A stretch of DNA of 12,368 nt from a virus. Its lineage: Duplodnaviria; Heunggongvirae; Uroviricota; Caudoviricetes. Within the stretch, counting starts at the first letter, position 1. Every line of letters begins with the position of its first letter. Under the pieces are notes generated by a model. That model did not search any database. It saw only the letters and a list, made by a program, of their open reading frames with translations, and had not been told where the DNA came from. Positions 4,748-12,368 of the stretch are shown in pieces. The position numbers and the translations under genes were made by a program. The stretch lies in the IMG/VR virus record IMGVR_UViG_2531839473_000005, one strand, 5' to 3'.

Positions 4748-4796
4748 CTTTCATTAATCCCTGAATTGTTGGTTAATACGCTTGAGGGTAAATGCG

Positions 4797-4823
4797 AATA
4801 ATAAAAAAGGAGCCTGTAGCTCC
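4797..4823 (-). terminator. Rho-independent terminator (minus strand) between two small accessory genes
   Basis: Minus-strand GGAGC-tacag-GCTCC hairpin followed by TTTTTTATTATT, 23 nt downstream of the stop of ORF 4846-5127. Confidence 0.5.
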
Positions 4824-4845
4824 CTGATGATTTTGCTTTTCATGT

Positions 4846-7320: not shown

Positions 7321-7611
7321 TTAGTGATTCAGGCCGTTACCGCGTCCGTCGAGAAAAACTTCCACGAGCAAATCACGGGTATAAGTGCGCTCGATGCCGC
7401 GATGCAGATAAAGCCGTCCGCGTAAATTAGCTGATGCAGTCCAGGTACCATCTTTGTGTTTGACCAGCATTCCTGGCATGACCGCACCTCGATTAACGGT
7501 CTGCGTTCCATAATGTTGATGAACCATAAAAACTCCTGCCCGTAAGCTGGGCTGCTGAACATATAGAGACTTCTGCGCGTATTCAGGCGGTGGATGGCCG
7601 CCGGTTGTCAT
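7321..7611 (-). CDS. Hypothetical protein at the kil/cIII position, first gene of the leftward early operon (96 aa; possible 68-aa form from internal Met)
   Basis: Longest ORF after the PL-like promoter; GAGG 13 nt upstream of first ATG; an internal ATG has a stronger RBS (GGGCAGGAG); a nested 77-aa ORF in another frame makes the call uncertain. Confidence 0.4.
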
Positions 7612-7804
7612 AACTAAGCCGCCTCGTTGAAGCGACTAAGGTATGAAATGTTGAGTTAATTTCAGCTGGTCACACCGACGTTCACGCGTCCGTTTCACCC
7701 CTCGCACTCCCCGAAGCCTGCTGAAATTCAAACTGCGGATCTAAGCGGTCATCGCAACGGTGAATCAGGTAGTTGCCGTATCGTTGTGTTGTTGCGATGA
7801 ACTT

Positions 7805-7856
7805 ATTTAAAACTATAGTTGTTTTATTGTCAACAACAAAAGTTGTTTTATTGGTT
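7805..7856 (-). promoter_or_regulatory. PL-like leftward early promoter with OL-like operator repeats
   Basis: Minus strand: TTGACA (7833-7828), 17-bp spacer, TTAAAT (7810-7805); -35 embedded in GTTGTTGACAATAAAACAAC with flanking AACAAC/GTTGTT inverted and direct repeats. Confidence 0.5.
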
Positions 7857-7974
7857 GTTTTAGATATAACTGGTTGTATTTAGGATGGATTTATTTTGTG
7901 ACTTGAATCGCATAGCGATAACTGAAGTGAGGTTATGGTGGTTTTTTTAACGGTGTGTGTGATGAGGGGAGGGC

Positions 7975-8001
7975 AAAAGAAAACCCGGCACGGTGACCGG
8001 G
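7975..8001 (-). terminator. Rho-independent terminator downstream of the repressor gene
   Basis: Minus strand CCCGG-N8-CCGGG hairpin followed by TTTTCTTTT, about 120 nt after the cI stop. Confidence 0.55.
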
Positions 8002-8122
8002 ATTCTTACGCCGTTAGGTAAAGATATTATTGCGGTGGCTTAATATTACTACCTAGAGCAAAGATAGGAATTAGTTCTTTACTGAATGAGCACAATGCCC
8101 AGTTGATAATTTTTAATTGGTA

Positions 8123-8812
8123 CTACCCATGCTTCCTATATGTCTGCGGCATGCTCCCAATAACCTTACCGAAGATGAACACCCGGTTCATCTCGTCTTT
8201 CTCGATCGGGTCCCACGGTGAGTAGCTTTTGTTATCAGAGATGACCAGCAGCTTATCCTTCATCATTTGCAGGCGCTTTACATGGGCTGTGTCGTCGTAC
8301 AGAAACGCATAGATACCATCACCGTCGAAAGATTTAACTGTGATATCAACGAACAGCAGATCACCTGGTTCGATCGTTCCTGACATGCTGTCACCACGCA
8401 CGTTAATGATGCGGATATTTTCCGCCTTCCTACCATCGAACATGTGACGAGCATCGTCAAACGAGTACTCAACCGAGCGTAGAACTTCTACAAACTCACG
8501 GTTGATGACTCCCGGCCCAGCACTGACTTCTATATCAAGAACGTCAATCTTGAAGTATTTGGAATGGCTGACAGTTGATTGTATTGGTTGCACTGTACTG
8601 TCTGACATATTTCCAACGCCAGAAGATAACCATTCTGCGCGCACACCCAAAGCGTTCGCGATCTCCACGATTTTAGTTGTTTGATTAGCTTTCCCTGTTT
8701 CGATTTTCTGAATAGCAGCCTGGCTAACCCCGACCAAATCCCCAAGCGCCTTTTGTGTAAGGCCTCGCGCTAATCTGGCTTCTTTAAGTCTTTCTGAGAG
8801 TGTTGTTTTCAT
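8123..8812 (-). CDS. cI: CI-type prophage repressor (XRE-family HTH plus S24 LexA-like autopeptidase), 229 aa
   Basis: N-terminal HTH (LTQKALGDLVGVSQAAIQKIETGK); C-terminal RGDSMSGTIEPGDLLFVD and downstream HVKRL (Ser/Lys dyad); start at internal Met because the longer ORF would run through the operator. Confidence 0.85.
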   Translation of the reverse strand: MKTTLSERLKEARLARGLTQKALGDLVGVSQAAIQKIETGKANQTTKIVEIANALGVRAEWLSSGVGNMSDSTVQPIQSTVSHSKYFKIDVLDIEVSAGPGVINREFVEVLRSVEYSFDDARHMFDGRKAENIRIINVRGDSMSGTIEPGDLLFVDITVKSFDGDGIYAFLYDDTAHVKRLQMMKDKLLVISDNKSYSPWDPIEKDEMNRVFIFGKVIGSMPQTYRKHG

Positions 8813-8823
8813 AGTCCAAATGT

Positions 8824-8889
8824 ACAACCAAGGTTTTATTCCATCAAACGAAAATGGTTGTTGACTAAAAACAACCATAGTTTTAATCT
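8824..8889 (+). promoter_or_regulatory. OR-like operator region with rightward PR-like promoter
   Basis: Palindrome ATGGTTGTT-gactaaa-AACAACCAT (8854-8878) containing -35 TTGACT (8861-8866); candidate -10 TTTAAT (8882-8887); second half-site pair ACAACC-aa-GGTTTT at 8824-8837; cro RBS ACGGAGG follows. Confidence 0.55.
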
Positions 8890-8916
8890 TGATTCAAATT
8901 AACCACGGAGGTTGTT

Positions 8917-9147
8917 ATGAACCCAGCTATCAAAACAGCGATCAATATCGTTGGTTCACAAAAGAAACTGGGCGCTGCTTGCGAAGTTTCACAGCAGGCC
9001 GTCTATAAGTGGCTTCACAACAAAGCAAAGGTATCCCCTGAACATGTCGGCAGCATTGTTACGGCTACTGGTGGAGTAGTGAAGGCATACCAGATTCGCC
9101 CGGATCTTCCGAAGTTGTTTCCACACACCGAAAAGAACGCAGCTTAA
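8917..9147 (+). CDS. Cro/YdaS-like HTH regulator, 76 aa
   Basis: Divergent from the repressor across the operator; HTH segment LGAACEVSQQAVYKWL; size and position typical of Cro. Confidence 0.75.
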   Translation: MNPAIKTAINIVGSQKKLGAACEVSQQAVYKWLHNKAKVSPEHVGSIVTATGGVVKAYQIRPDLPKLFPHTEKNAA

Positions 9148-9216
9148 ATTTCCATTTCACGCTCTTTAACAATAAGCAATCAACTTAACAGTCAATTCAA
9201 ACTAAAGGAGTCAATT

Positions 9217-9756
9217 ATGCAACCACTTACATACCAACAGACTAGCGGATTTAGCCCGACTGCGGTGATAAATCGTTCTCAAACAAAACAGGTGCCAGGC
9301 CACGAAAAAATCCGTGATGCCGTCCGCGCCTGGTCGGCTGTAGATAATCAGGATGTCGTTGCCACACTCATTGTGAATGAGTATCGGGAGCAGGGCGGCG
9401 GCACCATCGATTTCCCTGATGATGTCAGCCGTGCACGCCAGAAGCTGTTCCGCTTCCTCGATAACAAATTCGATTCTGAAAAATACCGAAATAACGTGCG
9501 TGAACTGACCCCGGCAATTCTGGCGGTACTACCGCTGGAATATCGCGGTTACCTGGTTGAGCAGGATAGCTTCATGGCTAGGTTGGCTGAAATGGAAAAG
9601 GAACTCAGTGAGGCAAAACAGGCTGTCATTCTCAACGCACCACGCCACCAGAAACTGAAGGAAATTAGTGAAGGTATTGTGTCGATGTTTCGTGTGGACC
9701 CAGATCTGGCTGGTCCATTGATGGCGATGGTTACTACCATGCTGGGGGCGATATGA
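9217..9756 (+). CDS. YdaT-like protein occupying the cII position, 179 aa
   Basis: AAAGGAG RBS; motifs IVNEYREQGGG and LTPAILAVLPLEYRGYL resemble Rac YdaT as recalled (EYLRQGGG, LIPAILAILPRELR). Confidence 0.6.
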   Translation: MQPLTYQQTSGFSPTAVINRSQTKQVPGHEKIRDAVRAWSAVDNQDVVATLIVNEYREQGGGTIDFPDDVSRARQKLFRFLDNKFDSEKYRNNVRELTPAILAVLPLEYRGYLVEQDSFMARLAEMEKELSEAKQAVILNAPRHQKLKEISEGIVSMFRVDPDLAGPLMAMVTTMLGAI

Positions 9757-9842
9757 CAGGTTCAGAAATGGCGAAAGCCGGTCTGCTGGAACAGAACCGA
9801 CTTTCAGGTGCAAATCGTAACACACTCATTGCGGGAGGAATT

Positions 9843-10772
9843 ATGGCAAACACTGCTGAGATATTCAATTTTCCAGTGCCGGATGCGGCACAAAAGGAGC
9901 CGCGCGTGGCAGATCTCGATGATGGTTATACGCGCATTGCAAATGAGTTGCTGGAAGCTGTGATGCTGGCCGGATTAACACAGCACCAGCTTCTGGTCTT
10001 TCTGGCTGTCATGCGCAAAACATATGGCTTTAATAAAAAACTGGATTGGGTTAGCAACGAGCAACTTTCCGAATTAACCGGGATATTGCCGCACAAGTGT
10101 TCTGCTGCAAAAAGTGTTCTGGTAAAGCGTGGGATTTTTATTCAGAGCGGGCGGAATACCGGCATTAATAATGTGGTCAGTGAATGGTCAACATTACCCG
10201 AATCAGGTAAGAAAAATAAAGTTTACCTGAAAGAGGTAAATTTACCTGAATCAGGTAAAAAAAGTTTACCCAAATCAGGTAAAGGCGTTTACCCGAATCA
10301 GGTAAACACAAAAGACAAACTAACAAAAGACAATATAAAACCTTTTTCGTCCGAGAATTCTGGCGAATCCTCTGACCAACCAGAAAACGATCTTCCTGTG
10401 GTGAAACCGGATGCTGCAATTCAGAGCGGCAGCAAGTGGGGGACAGCAGAAGACCTGACCGCCGCAGAGTGGATGTTTGACATGGTGAAGACCATCGCGC
10501 CATCAGCCAGAAAACCGAATTTTGCAGGGTGGGCTAACGATATCCGCCTGATGCGTGAACGTGACGGACGTAACCACCGCGACATGTGCGTGCTGTTCCG
10601 CTGGGCATGCCAGGACAACTTCTGGTCCGGTAACGTGCTAAGTCCGGCCAAACTCCGCGACAAGTGGACCCAACTCGAAATCAACCGTAACAAGCAACAG
10701 GCAGGCGTGACAGCTAGCAAACCAAAACTCGACCTGACAAACACAGACTGGATTTACGGGGTGGATCTATGA
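9843..10772 (+). CDS. O: Lambda O-like replication initiator, 309 aa from this start
   Basis: MANTAEIFNF...VADLDDGYTRIANELLEA...KTYGFNK resembles the lambda O N-terminus as recalled; RBS GGGAGGA; iterons inside the gene; an alternative upstream start at 9753 exists. Confidence 0.85.
   Translation: MANTAEIFNFPVPDAAQKEPRVADLDDGYTRIANELLEAVMLAGLTQHQLLVFLAVMRKTYGFNKKLDWVSNEQLSELTGILPHKCSAAKSVLVKRGIFIQSGRNTGINNVVSEWSTLPESGKKNKVYLKEVNLPESGKKSLPKSGKGVYPNQVNTKDKLTKDNIKPFSSENSGESSDQPENDLPVVKPDAAIQSGSKWGTAEDLTAAEWMFDMVKTIAPSARKPNFAGWANDIRLMRERDGRNHRDMCVLFRWACQDNFWSGNVLSPAKLRDKWTQLEINRNKQQAGVTASKPKLDLTNTDWIYGVDL
10191..10345. repeat. Origin of replication: 4-5 iterons plus A/T-rich region inside the O gene
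   Basis: Repeats of TTACCCGAATCAGGTAAA-like units (TTACC...GGTAA palindromic) at about 10191-10309, followed by aaacacaaaagacaaactaacaaaagacaatataaaa; same architecture as ori-lambda. Confidence 0.7.
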
Positions 10773-11470
10773 AAAACATCGCCGCACAGATGATTAACTT
10801 TGACCGTGAGCAGATGCGTCGGATCGCCAACAACATGCCGGAACAGTACGACGAAAAGCCGCAGGTACAGCAGGTAGCGCAGATAATCAACGGTGTATTC
10901 AGCCAGTTACTGGCAACTTTCCCGGCGAGCCTGGCTAATCGTGACCAGAACGAACTGAACGAAATCCGCCGCCAGTGGGTTCTGGCTTTCCGGGAAAACG
11001 GGATCACCACGATGGAACAGGTGAGCGCCGGAATGCGTGTTGCCCGTCGGCAGAATAGACCATTTCTGCCATCACCCGGGCAGTTTGTTGCATGGTGCCG
11101 GGAAGAAGCATCCGTTACCGCCGGGCTGCCAAACGTCAGCGAGCTGGTTGATATGGTTTACGAGTATTGCCGGAAGCGTGGTCTGTATCCGGATGCAGAG
11201 TCTTATCCGTGGAAATCAAACGCGCACTACTGGCTGGTTACCAACCTGTATCAGAACATGCGGGCCAATGCGTTGACTGACGCGGAATTACGGCGCAAGG
11301 CTGCCGATGAACTGTCCTGTATGACCGCGCGAATTAACCGTGGTGAGGCGATACCTGAACCAGTAAAACAACTTCCTGTCATGGGCGGTAGACCTCTAAA
11401 TCGTGCACAGGCTCTGGCGAAGATCGCAGAAATCAAAGCTAAGTTCGGACTGAAAGGAGCAAGTGTATGA
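10769..11470 (+). CDS. P: Lambda P-like replication protein (DnaB helicase loader), 233 aa
   Basis: MKNIAAQMINFDREQMRRIANNMPEQYDEKPQVQQVAQIINGVFSQLLATFPASLANRDQNE... is near-identical to lambda P as recalled; ATGA overlap with the O stop. Confidence 0.9.
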   Translation: MKNIAAQMINFDREQMRRIANNMPEQYDEKPQVQQVAQIINGVFSQLLATFPASLANRDQNELNEIRRQWVLAFRENGITTMEQVSAGMRVARRQNRPFLPSPGQFVAWCREEASVTAGLPNVSELVDMVYEYCRKRGLYPDAESYPWKSNAHYWLVTNLYQNMRANALTDAELRRKAADELSCMTARINRGEAIPEPVKQLPVMGGRPLNRAQALAKIAEIKAKFGLKGASV

Positions 11471-11769
11471 CGGGCAAAGAGGCAATTATTCATTACCTGG
11501 GGACGCATAAGAGCTTCTGTGCACAGGACGTTGCCGCGGTAACAGGCGCAACCGTAACCAGCATAAATCAGGCTGCGGCTAAAATGGCGCGGGCAGGAAT
11601 CCTGGTCGTTGATGGTAAGGTCTGGCGAACGGTGTATTACCGGTTCGCTACCAGAGAAGAACGGGAAGGAAAGGTGAGCACGAATCTGATTTTTAAGGAG
11701 TGTCGCCAGAGTGCCGCGATGAAACGGGTACTGAGGGTATATAAAAGAACATCAATGGGAACACAATGA
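11467..11769 (+). CDS. ren: Ren-like protein, 100 aa
   Basis: MTGKEAIIHYLGTHKSFCAQDVAAVTGATVTSINQAAAKMARAGILVVDGKVWRTVYYRFATREEREGK resembles lambda Ren as recalled; ATGA overlap with the P stop. Confidence 0.8.
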   Translation: MTGKEAIIHYLGTHKSFCAQDVAAVTGATVTSINQAAAKMARAGILVVDGKVWRTVYYRFATREEREGKVSTNLIFKECRQSAAMKRVLRVYKRTSMGTQ

Positions 11770-11786
11770 TGAAACAGGTGAGTTGA

Positions 11787-11821
11787 GTTCAAACTGTAGT
11801 ACAATTCTCTCCAGTTTGAAC
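11787..11821. repeat. Perfect 10-bp inverted repeat with 15-bp spacer, immediately upstream of the emrE RBS
   Basis: GTTCAAACTG-tagtacaattctctc-CAGTTTGAAC; no U-tract after it, so not a canonical intrinsic terminator. Confidence 0.6.
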
Positions 11822-11836
11822 AGGAAAGAATATGCT

Positions 11837-11930
11837 ATGAACCCTTATATTTATCTTGGTGGTGCAATACTTGCAGAGGTCATTGGTACAACCTTAATGA
11901 AGTTTTCAGAAGGTTTTACACGGTTATGGC
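11837..11930 (+). pseudogene. emrE: SMR-family multidrug efflux gene emrE, truncated after codon 31 by IS2
   Basis: MNPYIYLGGAILAEVIGTTLMKFSEGFTRLW matches the EmrE N-terminus as recalled; RBS AGGAAAG; the IS2 IRL begins at 11931. Confidence 0.8.
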
Positions 11931-12368
11931 TAGACTGGCCCCCTGAATCTCCAGACAACCAGTATCACTTAAATAAGTGATAGTCTTAATACTAGTTTTT
12001 AGACTAGTCATTGGAGAACAGATGATTGATGTCTTAGGGCCGGAGAAACGCAGACGGCGTACCACACAGGAAAAGATCGCAATTGTTCAGCAGAGCTTTG
12101 AACCGGGGATGACGGTCTCCCTCGTTGCCCGGCAACATGGTGTAGCAGCCAGCCAGTTATTTCTCTGGCGTAAGCAATACCAGGAAGGAAGTCTTACTGC
12201 TGTCGCCGCCGGAGAACAGGTTGTTCCTGCCTCTGAACTTGCTGCCGCCATGAAGCAGATTAAAGAACTCCAGCGCCTGCTCGGCAAGAAAACGATGGAA
12301 AATGAACTCCTCAAAGAAGCCGTTGAATATGGACGGGCAAAAAAGTGGATAGCGCACGCGCCCTTATT
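11931..12368 (+). mobile_element. IS2 (IS3 family), partial copy cut by window end; IRL tip at 11931 faces the window interior
   Basis: Begins TAGACTGGCCCCCTGAATCTCCAGACAACC; reverse complement of the left copy (1-484) over the shared length, with identical ORF translations. Confidence 0.9.
12022..12368 (+). CDS. insC: IS2 transposase OrfA (InsC), 3'-incomplete at window edge
   Basis: ATG at 12022 followed by [18 protein letters not shown]...; runs to the end of the window. Confidence 0.85.

Follow-up and report, generated by a model that had tools for sequence, protein, structure and literature searches.

The early-left region and its promoter

The window (the whole 12,368-nt stretch of DNA that was analysed) carries a lambdoid prophage of the DLP12 type, inserted at the argU gene for tRNA-Arg (2749-2822). 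The minus strand holds, in order, int, exo, bet, gam and kil, and the S24-family cI repressor gene lies at 8123-8811 on the same strand. Past cI, the plus strand carries cro, a CII-like/YdaT gene, O, P and ren. The closest complete relative is the plaque-forming phage PhiR34_1, which is 99.7% identical across 7500-8200. The segment is bounded by inverted IS2 ends (28-572 and 11916-12357), one of which breaks sfmH and the other emrE, with an identical reading of the junction at the protein level at both ends. Such an arrangement points to an inversion bounded by IS2, or to a prophage remnant set within a composite structure.

The first gene of the early-left operon is kil (68 aa, 7321-7527, minus strand; PHROG 294, E = 1.3e-37), and the RefSeq coordinates of relatives agree with this call. 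The predicted start codon is the ATG at 7527. A strong AGGAG precedes it, and RefSeq and PHROG use this start, so that ATG 7611 is ruled out; homology to kil in other genera also starts exactly at 7527. Given this start, the untranslated leader is about 270 nt long and not 190 nt, as the first-pass annotation of this sequence had assumed. The same annotation held that no minus-strand open reading frame (ORF) above about 17 codons separates the repressor gene from the first leftward gene. That is correct for ATG-initiated ORFs, of which there is none in 7612-8122, but two ORFs open with TTG, one of 31 aa (7636-7731) and one of 22 aa (8027-8095). The leader itself is a composite of three parts: a 5'-terminal hairpin (stem 1, 7800-7749), a core element (7753-7657) and a cassette resembling the tL1 terminator region of other lambdoid phages (7649-7527).

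The predicted PL promoter lies in the OL/PL region (7801-7889, minus strand), with a -35 hexamer TTGACA (7833-7828), a -10 hexamer TTAAAT (7810-7805), a 17-nt spacer and a +1 read from the sequence as near 7799. Operator half-sites ACAAC(CA) are repeated across the region. Relatives carry at least three unrelated operator types here (nucleotide diversity 0.33), and both flanks are conserved. We placed PL at this position on the strength of the promoter motifs and because the divergence of the heteroimmune operator sets stops at about 7801. A scan also found the homologous promoter in L261, a contig with a diverged copy of the core element.

The left edge of the conserved block is formed by an intrinsic terminator of the repressor transcript (7984-8001, minus strand, from a terminator scan), and in most relatives homology starts at this terminator. 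The roughly 110 nt between it and the operators (7890-8001, minus strand) are also conserved (diversity 0.10) and contain no ORF; they are kept across phages with different upstream genes, either cI directly or gevA/gevT-like ASCH genes. The leader has a nucleotide diversity of 0.018-0.027, compared with 0.049 at third codon positions of kil and 0.33 in the operator region. The first-pass annotation had set conservation or covariation of the stems among related prophages as a test of its proposal; the leader is conserved across heteroimmune phages.

Stems, fold and distribution of the core element

Two perfect stems had been recorded in the leader, and both are present where they had been placed. 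Stem 1 pairs CATCGCAAC (7799-7791) with GTTGCGATG (7758-7750); it is perfect and correctly located, but its true length is 10 bp (7800-7791/7758-7749) rather than 9. Stem 2 pairs AATTTCAGC (7728-7720) with GCTGAAATT (7666-7658), with a GACG...CGTC palindrome between its arms. Perfect 9-bp inverted repeats were counted in 5000 dinucleotide-preserving shuffles of 7612-7804, which gave a mean of 0.063 repeats, P(>=1) = 0.048 and P(>=2) = 0.011, against three overlapping 9-mers observed; the two stems are thus more than would be expected by chance. Compared with shuffles, the folding energy of the leader is unexceptional overall (z = -0.54 for the whole 189 nt, -0.01 for the 5' 150 nt and -0.14 for the middle 100 nt that contain stem 2), and stem 1 alone has z = -2.65 with a minimum free energy of -10.5 kcal/mol. 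The alignment of relatives that had been proposed as a check contains no compensatory change in either stem. Among 47 distinct sequences of the E. coli group the observed covariation of the two stems equals that of shuffles, so the test has no power in that set.

Stem 1 (7749-7800, minus strand; 10 bp around a C-rich 32-nt loop) occurs only with the version of the core found in the window, hereafter type A, and is absent from the diverged type B. Only the DLP12-like group of E. coli has it. All of its changes affect one side and keep wobble pairing, and three loci (L049, L052 and L079) have a different 5' arm. With its 5' arm replaced in such loci and no counterpart in type B, stem 1 does not belong to the conserved element. 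Stabilising stem-loops at the 5' terminus occur on E. coli mRNAs such as ompA. Like these, stem 1 lies within about 2 nt of the predicted 5' end (0-2 nt from the predicted +1), a geometry that would fit a stabilising hairpin; unlike them, it is not conserved outside type A. Stem 1 may well be a 5'-terminal stability or processing hairpin.

This geometry also bears on a broader alternative, in which the leader would be an ordinary 5'-untranslated element with no effect on termination, acting as a stabiliser of the PL message, as an RNase III or RNase E site, or as a translational or Rho-dependent attenuator that limits toxic Kil. RNase E depends on the RNA 5' end, and the lambda N leader offers a known RNase III/RNase E processing site for comparison. 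A hairpin at 0-2 nt from the predicted +1 and 270 nt of untranslated RNA before a toxic gene would both be in keeping with such a role. That stem 1 is dispensable in relatives argues against it, as does the distribution of the core described below.

The core element of type A is 97 nt long (7657-7753, minus strand), begins about 46 nt past the predicted +1 and contains no conserved ORF. A consensus fold was obtained with RNAalifold from 15 representative sequences of types A and B. The predicted helices are P1 (7747-7745/7705-7703), P1b (7738-7736/7713-7711) and P2 (7734-7729/7720-7715, with loop AAUUUCAG at 7728-7721), accompanied by a G-rich single strand (GGGGAGUGCGAGGGGUG) and a long irregular hairpin, P3 (7702-7664), all on the minus strand. 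Three compensatory pairs distinguish the clades. In P2 an A-U pair becomes C-G and a G-C pair becomes A-U, and in P3 an A-U pair becomes G-C. The fold has a covariation score of 0.141 compared with 0.081 for shuffles, none of 500 of which reached 0.141, and sliding the pairing partners gives at most 0.045. Covariation thus supports the local hairpins P2 and P3, which are different from the two stems first noticed.

Variation at single positions is mostly compatible with this fold. The G×G juxtaposition at position 7691/7676 of P3 is G-C in three contigs and U-G in L495, and the six commonest polymorphisms within type A fall mostly at unpaired or wobble-compatible positions. The exception is G7698A, present in 6 of 72 haplotypes, which breaks an otherwise unvaried outer pair of P3; any other change that disrupts the fold is a singleton. 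Taken by itself, type A shows no covariation. With two clades and about three independent events behind it, the structural evidence is real but thin.

Stem 2 (7658-7728, minus strand) takes a different place in this fold, since its 5' arm (AAUUUCAGC, 7728-7720) is the loop of P2 and its 3' arm (GCUGAAAUU, 7666-7658) belongs to the tail after P3. It could consequently form only as a pseudoknot or as an alternative pairing. Its six central pairs are kept in all 15 representatives of both types, two changes are one-sided wobbles, and the outer two pairs are often broken. A pseudoknot between the P2 loop and the tail is possible in the modelled structure.

R2, the covariance model of the element, scores 121 bits on the core in the window and finds exactly one copy per genome. 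Of 5426 complete E. coli genomes, 2210 (about 41%) have type A at an identity of at least 90%, always unannotated. A blastn search of phages with the 5' segment retrieved only 16 near-identical phages, and nhmmer with the same segment detected the diverged homologue in L261, about 75% identical, which defines type B. Type B is carried by 15 IMG/VR contigs and one metagenome contig. No third clade appeared in 4.2 Mb of related loci (nhmmer) or in a metagenome scan, in which 107 of the 108 hits of a type-B 18-mer came from environmental contigs by chance. Aligned locally with 8880-11900, the leader gave only chance 8-10-mers, so a second copy in the right operon was not found. R2 has a weak match inside ren (11499-11570, plus strand, 13.8 bits), which we judged to be noise because it lacks P2 and the inner part of P3. 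We found no description of the core in the searchable literature on put-like or new antiterminator RNAs, which does not fully exclude an earlier one.

The whole element could in principle be non-functional filler that hitch-hikes between PL and the tL1-type cassette, its stems having arisen by chance. An overall folding z of about 0 and the lack of compensatory change within type A are what would be expected of filler. Its diversity, by comparison, is below the synonymous level, it persists in at least 11 immunity types and in a pair of clades that are about 75% identical with structure-preserving changes between them, and 41% of complete E. coli genomes contain it. We regard filler as improbable.

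Cassettes that alternate behind PL

In L261, the PL leader starts with a sequence identical to that of HK639 and phi80 (CCATCGAAACGAAACATCGACAGCTGAGCGAAGTTAGCCAGCGGCGAAGTGGAG) and ends as in HK639 (TTACCAGCAGCTCTTTGCGAGGGGCTGACGGTAAACAA...), and the element replaces the putL stretch of HK639. More generally, a common PL and the first ~55 nt of the leader (..GCTGAGCGAAGTTAGCCAGCGG) are followed by boxA/nutL and N (phi80), by putL (HK639) or by type B, and the 3' flank TTACCAGCAGCTCTTTGCGAGGGGCTGACGG is common to HK639 and L261/L426. Among the loci fetched with this shared leader start, 52 continue with the boxA/nutL type, 41 with putL, 12 with type B and 23 with other sequences, mostly variant boxA, in proportions that are biased by how the loci were collected. 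The nutL, putL and type B cassettes are mutually exclusive among these loci.

Type B sits directly behind the PL of at least eight operator types, including the HK639 promoter (L423 and L432) and the phi80 promoter (L425 and L426), and type A behind at least three. The type A core is fused to the very tL1-type cassette that in L102, L104 and L212 comes directly after putL. The put motif was found near the element in none of 178 element loci. The core therefore occupies the place of an antiterminator, as had been proposed, in that it sits where relatives carry putL. Positional replacement of this kind shows the cassettes to be interchangeable; equal function does not follow from it. Given a slot otherwise filled by N and nut or by put, the core would probably be a third means of terminator read-through, as yet undescribed.

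The genes behind the element differ between the two types. Type B precedes unrelated genes, with kil 1-2 kb further on, and no N-like family occurs among the first genes after it. Translational control specific to kil was accordingly rejected as the role of the core. The same observation unties the core from kil and weakens the ordinary 5'-untranslated element considered above, and a role in stability or processing would not account for the specific alternation of the element with nutL-N and putL behind identical promoters. We consider that alternative unlikely, although it deserves more weight than filler.

The put RNAs are a key model for control of elongation by nascent RNA. The core resembles the put RNAs of HK022 and HK639 in lying just downstream of PL as a folded RNA of ~70-100 nt with no associated ORF, in being found in phages without N, in its slot and flanking leader sequence, and in the tL1-type cassette that follows directly in some phages. 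There is, by contrast, no sequence or structural similarity. The put RNAs have two stem-loops with a triplex, whereas the predicted fold of the core has nested P1/P2, a G-rich linker, an irregular P3 and a possible pseudoknot. HK022 has a putR in the PR operon, and the new element is single copy with no putR-like partner; the HK639 record annotates putL only and no putR. The putL and putR RNAs act in cis as antiterminators, suppressing pausing as well as termination, by binding the zinc-binding domain of the beta' subunit (PMC9378689).

The covariance-model search that the first-pass annotation had called for gave no match to HK022 put in the leader. Our put model R1, built from 15 put sequences, scores 95.3 bits on HK022 putL, 87.9 on HK639 putL and 48.5 on putR. 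With filters off it finds nothing in the leader of the window (the best score, 8.7 bits, is inside gene O) and nothing in the whole PhiR34_1 genome. Since the core lacks the two-stem-loop consensus of put (GAACGGCGCG..UAAACCAUGCGUCGG..GGCGGG..CAGGA..CGGCAAU), we rejected it as a put RNA. In the window, only tRNA-Arg passes the Rfam gathering threshold, and relaxing the search to E <= 10 adds spurious eukaryotic or CRISPR models.

Protein antiterminators were sought in the same region. In agreement with the first-pass annotation, no N or Nun lies between the repressor gene and kil, and none is annotated in PhiR34_1 or in phage 4A7. PHROG, tblastn against 50,697 phages and a search of 5.8 billion proteins yielded no N homologue. 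N is an arginine-rich-motif protein of about 100 aa, and no ORF above 31 aa occupies its position as first gene of the PL transcript. The leader contains no boxA within three mismatches. It thus differs from that of lambda and phi80, which have nutL and N, in lacking boxA, boxB and the N gene, and resembles it in occupying a slot behind phi80's promoter and leader start with a tL1 region downstream. An N gene elsewhere in the prophage, combined with nut-like sites in the leader, had been named as the finding that would overturn a cis-acting RNA; neither an N match nor a leader boxA was found. The original suggestion that such an RNA replaces a protein antiterminator consequently holds in part: the absence of N, Nun and boxA, the conservation and the putL slot agree with it, and membership in the put family does not.

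One small ORF in the leader invites a different reading. An arginine-rich peptide, (M)KRTRERRCDQLKLTQHFIP, could be translated from GTG 7698 or TTG 7731, and its RTRERR run (in KRTRERR...) recalls TRRRERR of lambda and TRRHERRR of P22. It could be the remnant of an N gene or a mini-N peptide, with a likeness to the arginine-rich motif of N. The GTG is preceded at 8 nt by a GGGGAG motif and is replaced by ATG in six haplotypes, and four of the eight common polymorphisms fall at third codon positions. These "synonymous" sites are equally well explained as wobble-compatible positions of P3. In type B, moreover, the frame is closed (TTG..TGA, GTG TAA) despite the conserved RNA, homologues are confined to the same 16 phages and one 31-aa metagenomic ORF, and there is no PHROG match. 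As the ORF is closed by stops in the diverged copies, it is a by-product of CGN-rich helices. From these comparisons a mini-N or N remnant seems highly improbable and close to refuted.

The core could also be a nut-like recruitment site at which the RNA assembles an unrecognised phage antiterminator, or host Nus/SuhB factors, onto RNA polymerase. The slot is used as well by nutL, which needs N, and the long, conserved G-rich single strand could bind a protein. There is also a perfect boxA (CGCTCTTTAACAA) in the cro-cII spacer (9160-9172, plus strand), at the position of nutR, which is the only good boxA match in the window at up to three mismatches. A strict right-arm boxA follows cro in 33 of the 66 type A loci with enough flank, a sign that the phage uses Nus-type machinery on its right arm. 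Among type B loci, however, the consensus right-arm boxA is found in none of nine; with half of type A and no type B having it, we rejected this boxA as a general partner of the element. The leader itself has no boxA, no N-like protein is adjacent or in the complete genomes, and the only ORF of the element, the arginine-rich one of 20-31 aa, is destroyed in type B by GTG TAA. Recruitment of this kind appears rather doubtful, if less so than filler.

No boxB hairpin follows the right-arm boxA of the window. Two loci, L312 and L057, have 12 extra nucleotides at this position that make a boxB-like hairpin (GACUGAUUAACAGUC), from which the window type looks like a deletion between TTAACAG repeats.

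The tL1-type cassette and a proposed role for the core

The core is followed by an intergenic cassette (7527-7649, minus strand) with homology to the tL1 region of phi80 and to the annotated terminator of HK639, and it has hairpin A and the AUGACAACC-hairpin B core. In order, it consists of CAUACC, hairpin A, the start of a mini-ORF, hairpin B, GCGCAGAAGUCU, hairpin C (7552-7538), the Shine-Dalgarno sequence AGGAG and the kil AUG at 7527. In phi80, the cassette lies between tL1A and tL1B, just after N, in what the annotation calls the tL1 region; the HK639 record marks part of it as a terminator (33104-33132). The cassette is 84-85% identical to phi80 and HK639 and 95-97% identical to many contigs. 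In IMG/VR contigs, the cassette comes either after the stop codon of a gene and a canonical terminator hairpin or directly after putL. Its core is present in 2321 of 5426 complete E. coli genomes, never annotated. Further copies are seen at 2501-2640 of L217, at 33100-33160 of L005 and at many IMG/VR loci, with a near-invariant AUGACAACCGGCGGCCAUCCACCG and a polyproline run in the mini-protein.

Hairpin A (7609-7645, minus strand) has 9 bp (7637-7617) extended by CAUA (7645-7642) pairing with UAUG (7612-7609), and within it lie the AUG at 7611, which the added helix would bury, and a Shine-Dalgarno-like GAGG. Seven of its pairs show compensatory double changes across 20 variants. Hairpin B (GGCGG-CCAUCCA-CCGCC, 7586-7602, minus strand) lies inside the conserved start of the mini-ORF, which is near-invariant (AUG ACA ACC GGC GGC CAU CCA CCG, MTTGGHPP...). 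The end of the mini-ORF varies in frame and place between phages, and a P22-like version from Salmonella has a 3-nt deletion that keeps the frame. The 70 nt that include hairpins A and B (7649-7580), which the first-pass annotation had not singled out, have a folding z of -4.26. Hairpin C is small, covaries and precedes the Shine-Dalgarno sequence of the next gene. The cassette is possibly a translation-coupled attenuator. That a Shine-Dalgarno-like motif and an AUG are buried in a covarying hairpin next to the core is a point in favour of the ordinary 5'-untranslated element discussed above.

In HK639 and several contigs, a U-run comes after hairpin B, which carries a terminator annotation there. 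The U-run is absent from the window, which reads CCACCGCC-TGAATACGCG where HK639 has ..AGCATATTTTTCGC. The window thus differs from the tL1 region of phi80 and HK639 in missing both a hairpin of the tL1A type and the U-run of hairpin B. With hairpin B in this form, the nearest strong terminator is 2.8 kb away; it is an intrinsic terminator in the early-left operon, upstream of xis/int (4807-4825, minus strand; AGGGAGCTACAGGCTCCTT then TTTTATTATT). Between its copy of the element and the kil region, L261 carries two canonical intrinsic terminators.

We suggest that the 97-nt core (7753-7657, minus strand) would act in cis as a structured RNA that is first transcribed from PL and that folds into P1/P2, the G-rich linker and P3, possibly locked by the pseudoknot between loop and tail. 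In this scenario, the folded core, either by itself as put does or together with host Nus factors, would make the transcribing RNA polymerase resistant to the early-left terminators downstream, namely the adjoining tL1-type cassette and the 4825-4807 intrinsic terminator. In this way kil-gam-bet-exo and xis-int could be expressed once the repressor is lost, and the core would take the part played by nutL and N in lambda and phi80 and by putL in HK022 and HK639. The antitermination reading draws on the interchangeability of the cassettes, on the lack of both N and put, on terminators further downstream, on conservation across heteroimmune phages and on the conserved fold; RNA polymerase binding and antitermination itself are inferred from this comparative anatomy. 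Points against it are the two-clade basis of the covariation, a folding energy of the 5' 150 nt no better than that of shuffles, the single copy per genome with nothing comparable in the PR operon, the 2.8 kb to the nearest strong terminator in a window whose hairpin B has no U-run, and the lack of any resemblance to put.

From these sequence comparisons, the odds seem to us about even that the core is a cis-acting antitermination RNA which is put-like in function and unrelated to put in sequence and fold. More tentatively, and with doubts that outweigh our confidence, it might represent a second class of protein-independent RNA that binds E. coli RNA polymerase and confers processive antitermination, structurally unrelated to put and an independent answer to the same problem, found in DLP12-like and related lambdoid prophages of about 41% of complete E. 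coli genomes. There it would act jointly with the widespread tL1 cassette, whose covarying hairpin and MTTGGHPP mini-ORF may contribute translation-dependent control.

To our knowledge, put is the only phage RNA family known to make RNA polymerase resistant to terminators without a protein. If the proposal is correct, a second, unrelated fold with the same job as put would show which RNA features are essential. It would also explain early-gene expression in many lambdoid phages that lack N, and it would provide an annotation for a sequence found in over 2200 complete E. coli genomes. A 2025 survey had guessed that lambdoid phages without N are "maybe put-like" (PMC12315714).

Two other leaders are chimeric (L162, ~1222-1260, and L180, ~4760-4800): stem I of put (GTCGAACGGCGCGAC..TAAACCATGCGTCGG) is fused directly to a boxA (AACCGCTCTTTAACAATC), which stands in place of put stem II. 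Four loci (L236, L164, L224 and L114) have, upstream of the tL1 cassette, a conserved hairpin (CCACGCGCCGGGCGUGG) and then UAAA(C/U)AUCCCGGC. This leader type is neither put, boxA nor the new element, and may be another cassette for the same slot.

In kil loci of other genera (L007-L014, from Citrobacter, Kluyvera, Enterobacter, Silvania and Pseudocitrobacter), a short leader lies 60-170 nt upstream of kil, with the 5' hairpin GACAAC..GUUGUC and a motif that reads GUUCCGCYRGCC(U)GGCGACAAGG(G)CAAA. Some of these leaders add an 18-bp hairpin just before the Shine-Dalgarno sequence, a theme also found in hairpin C of the cassette.
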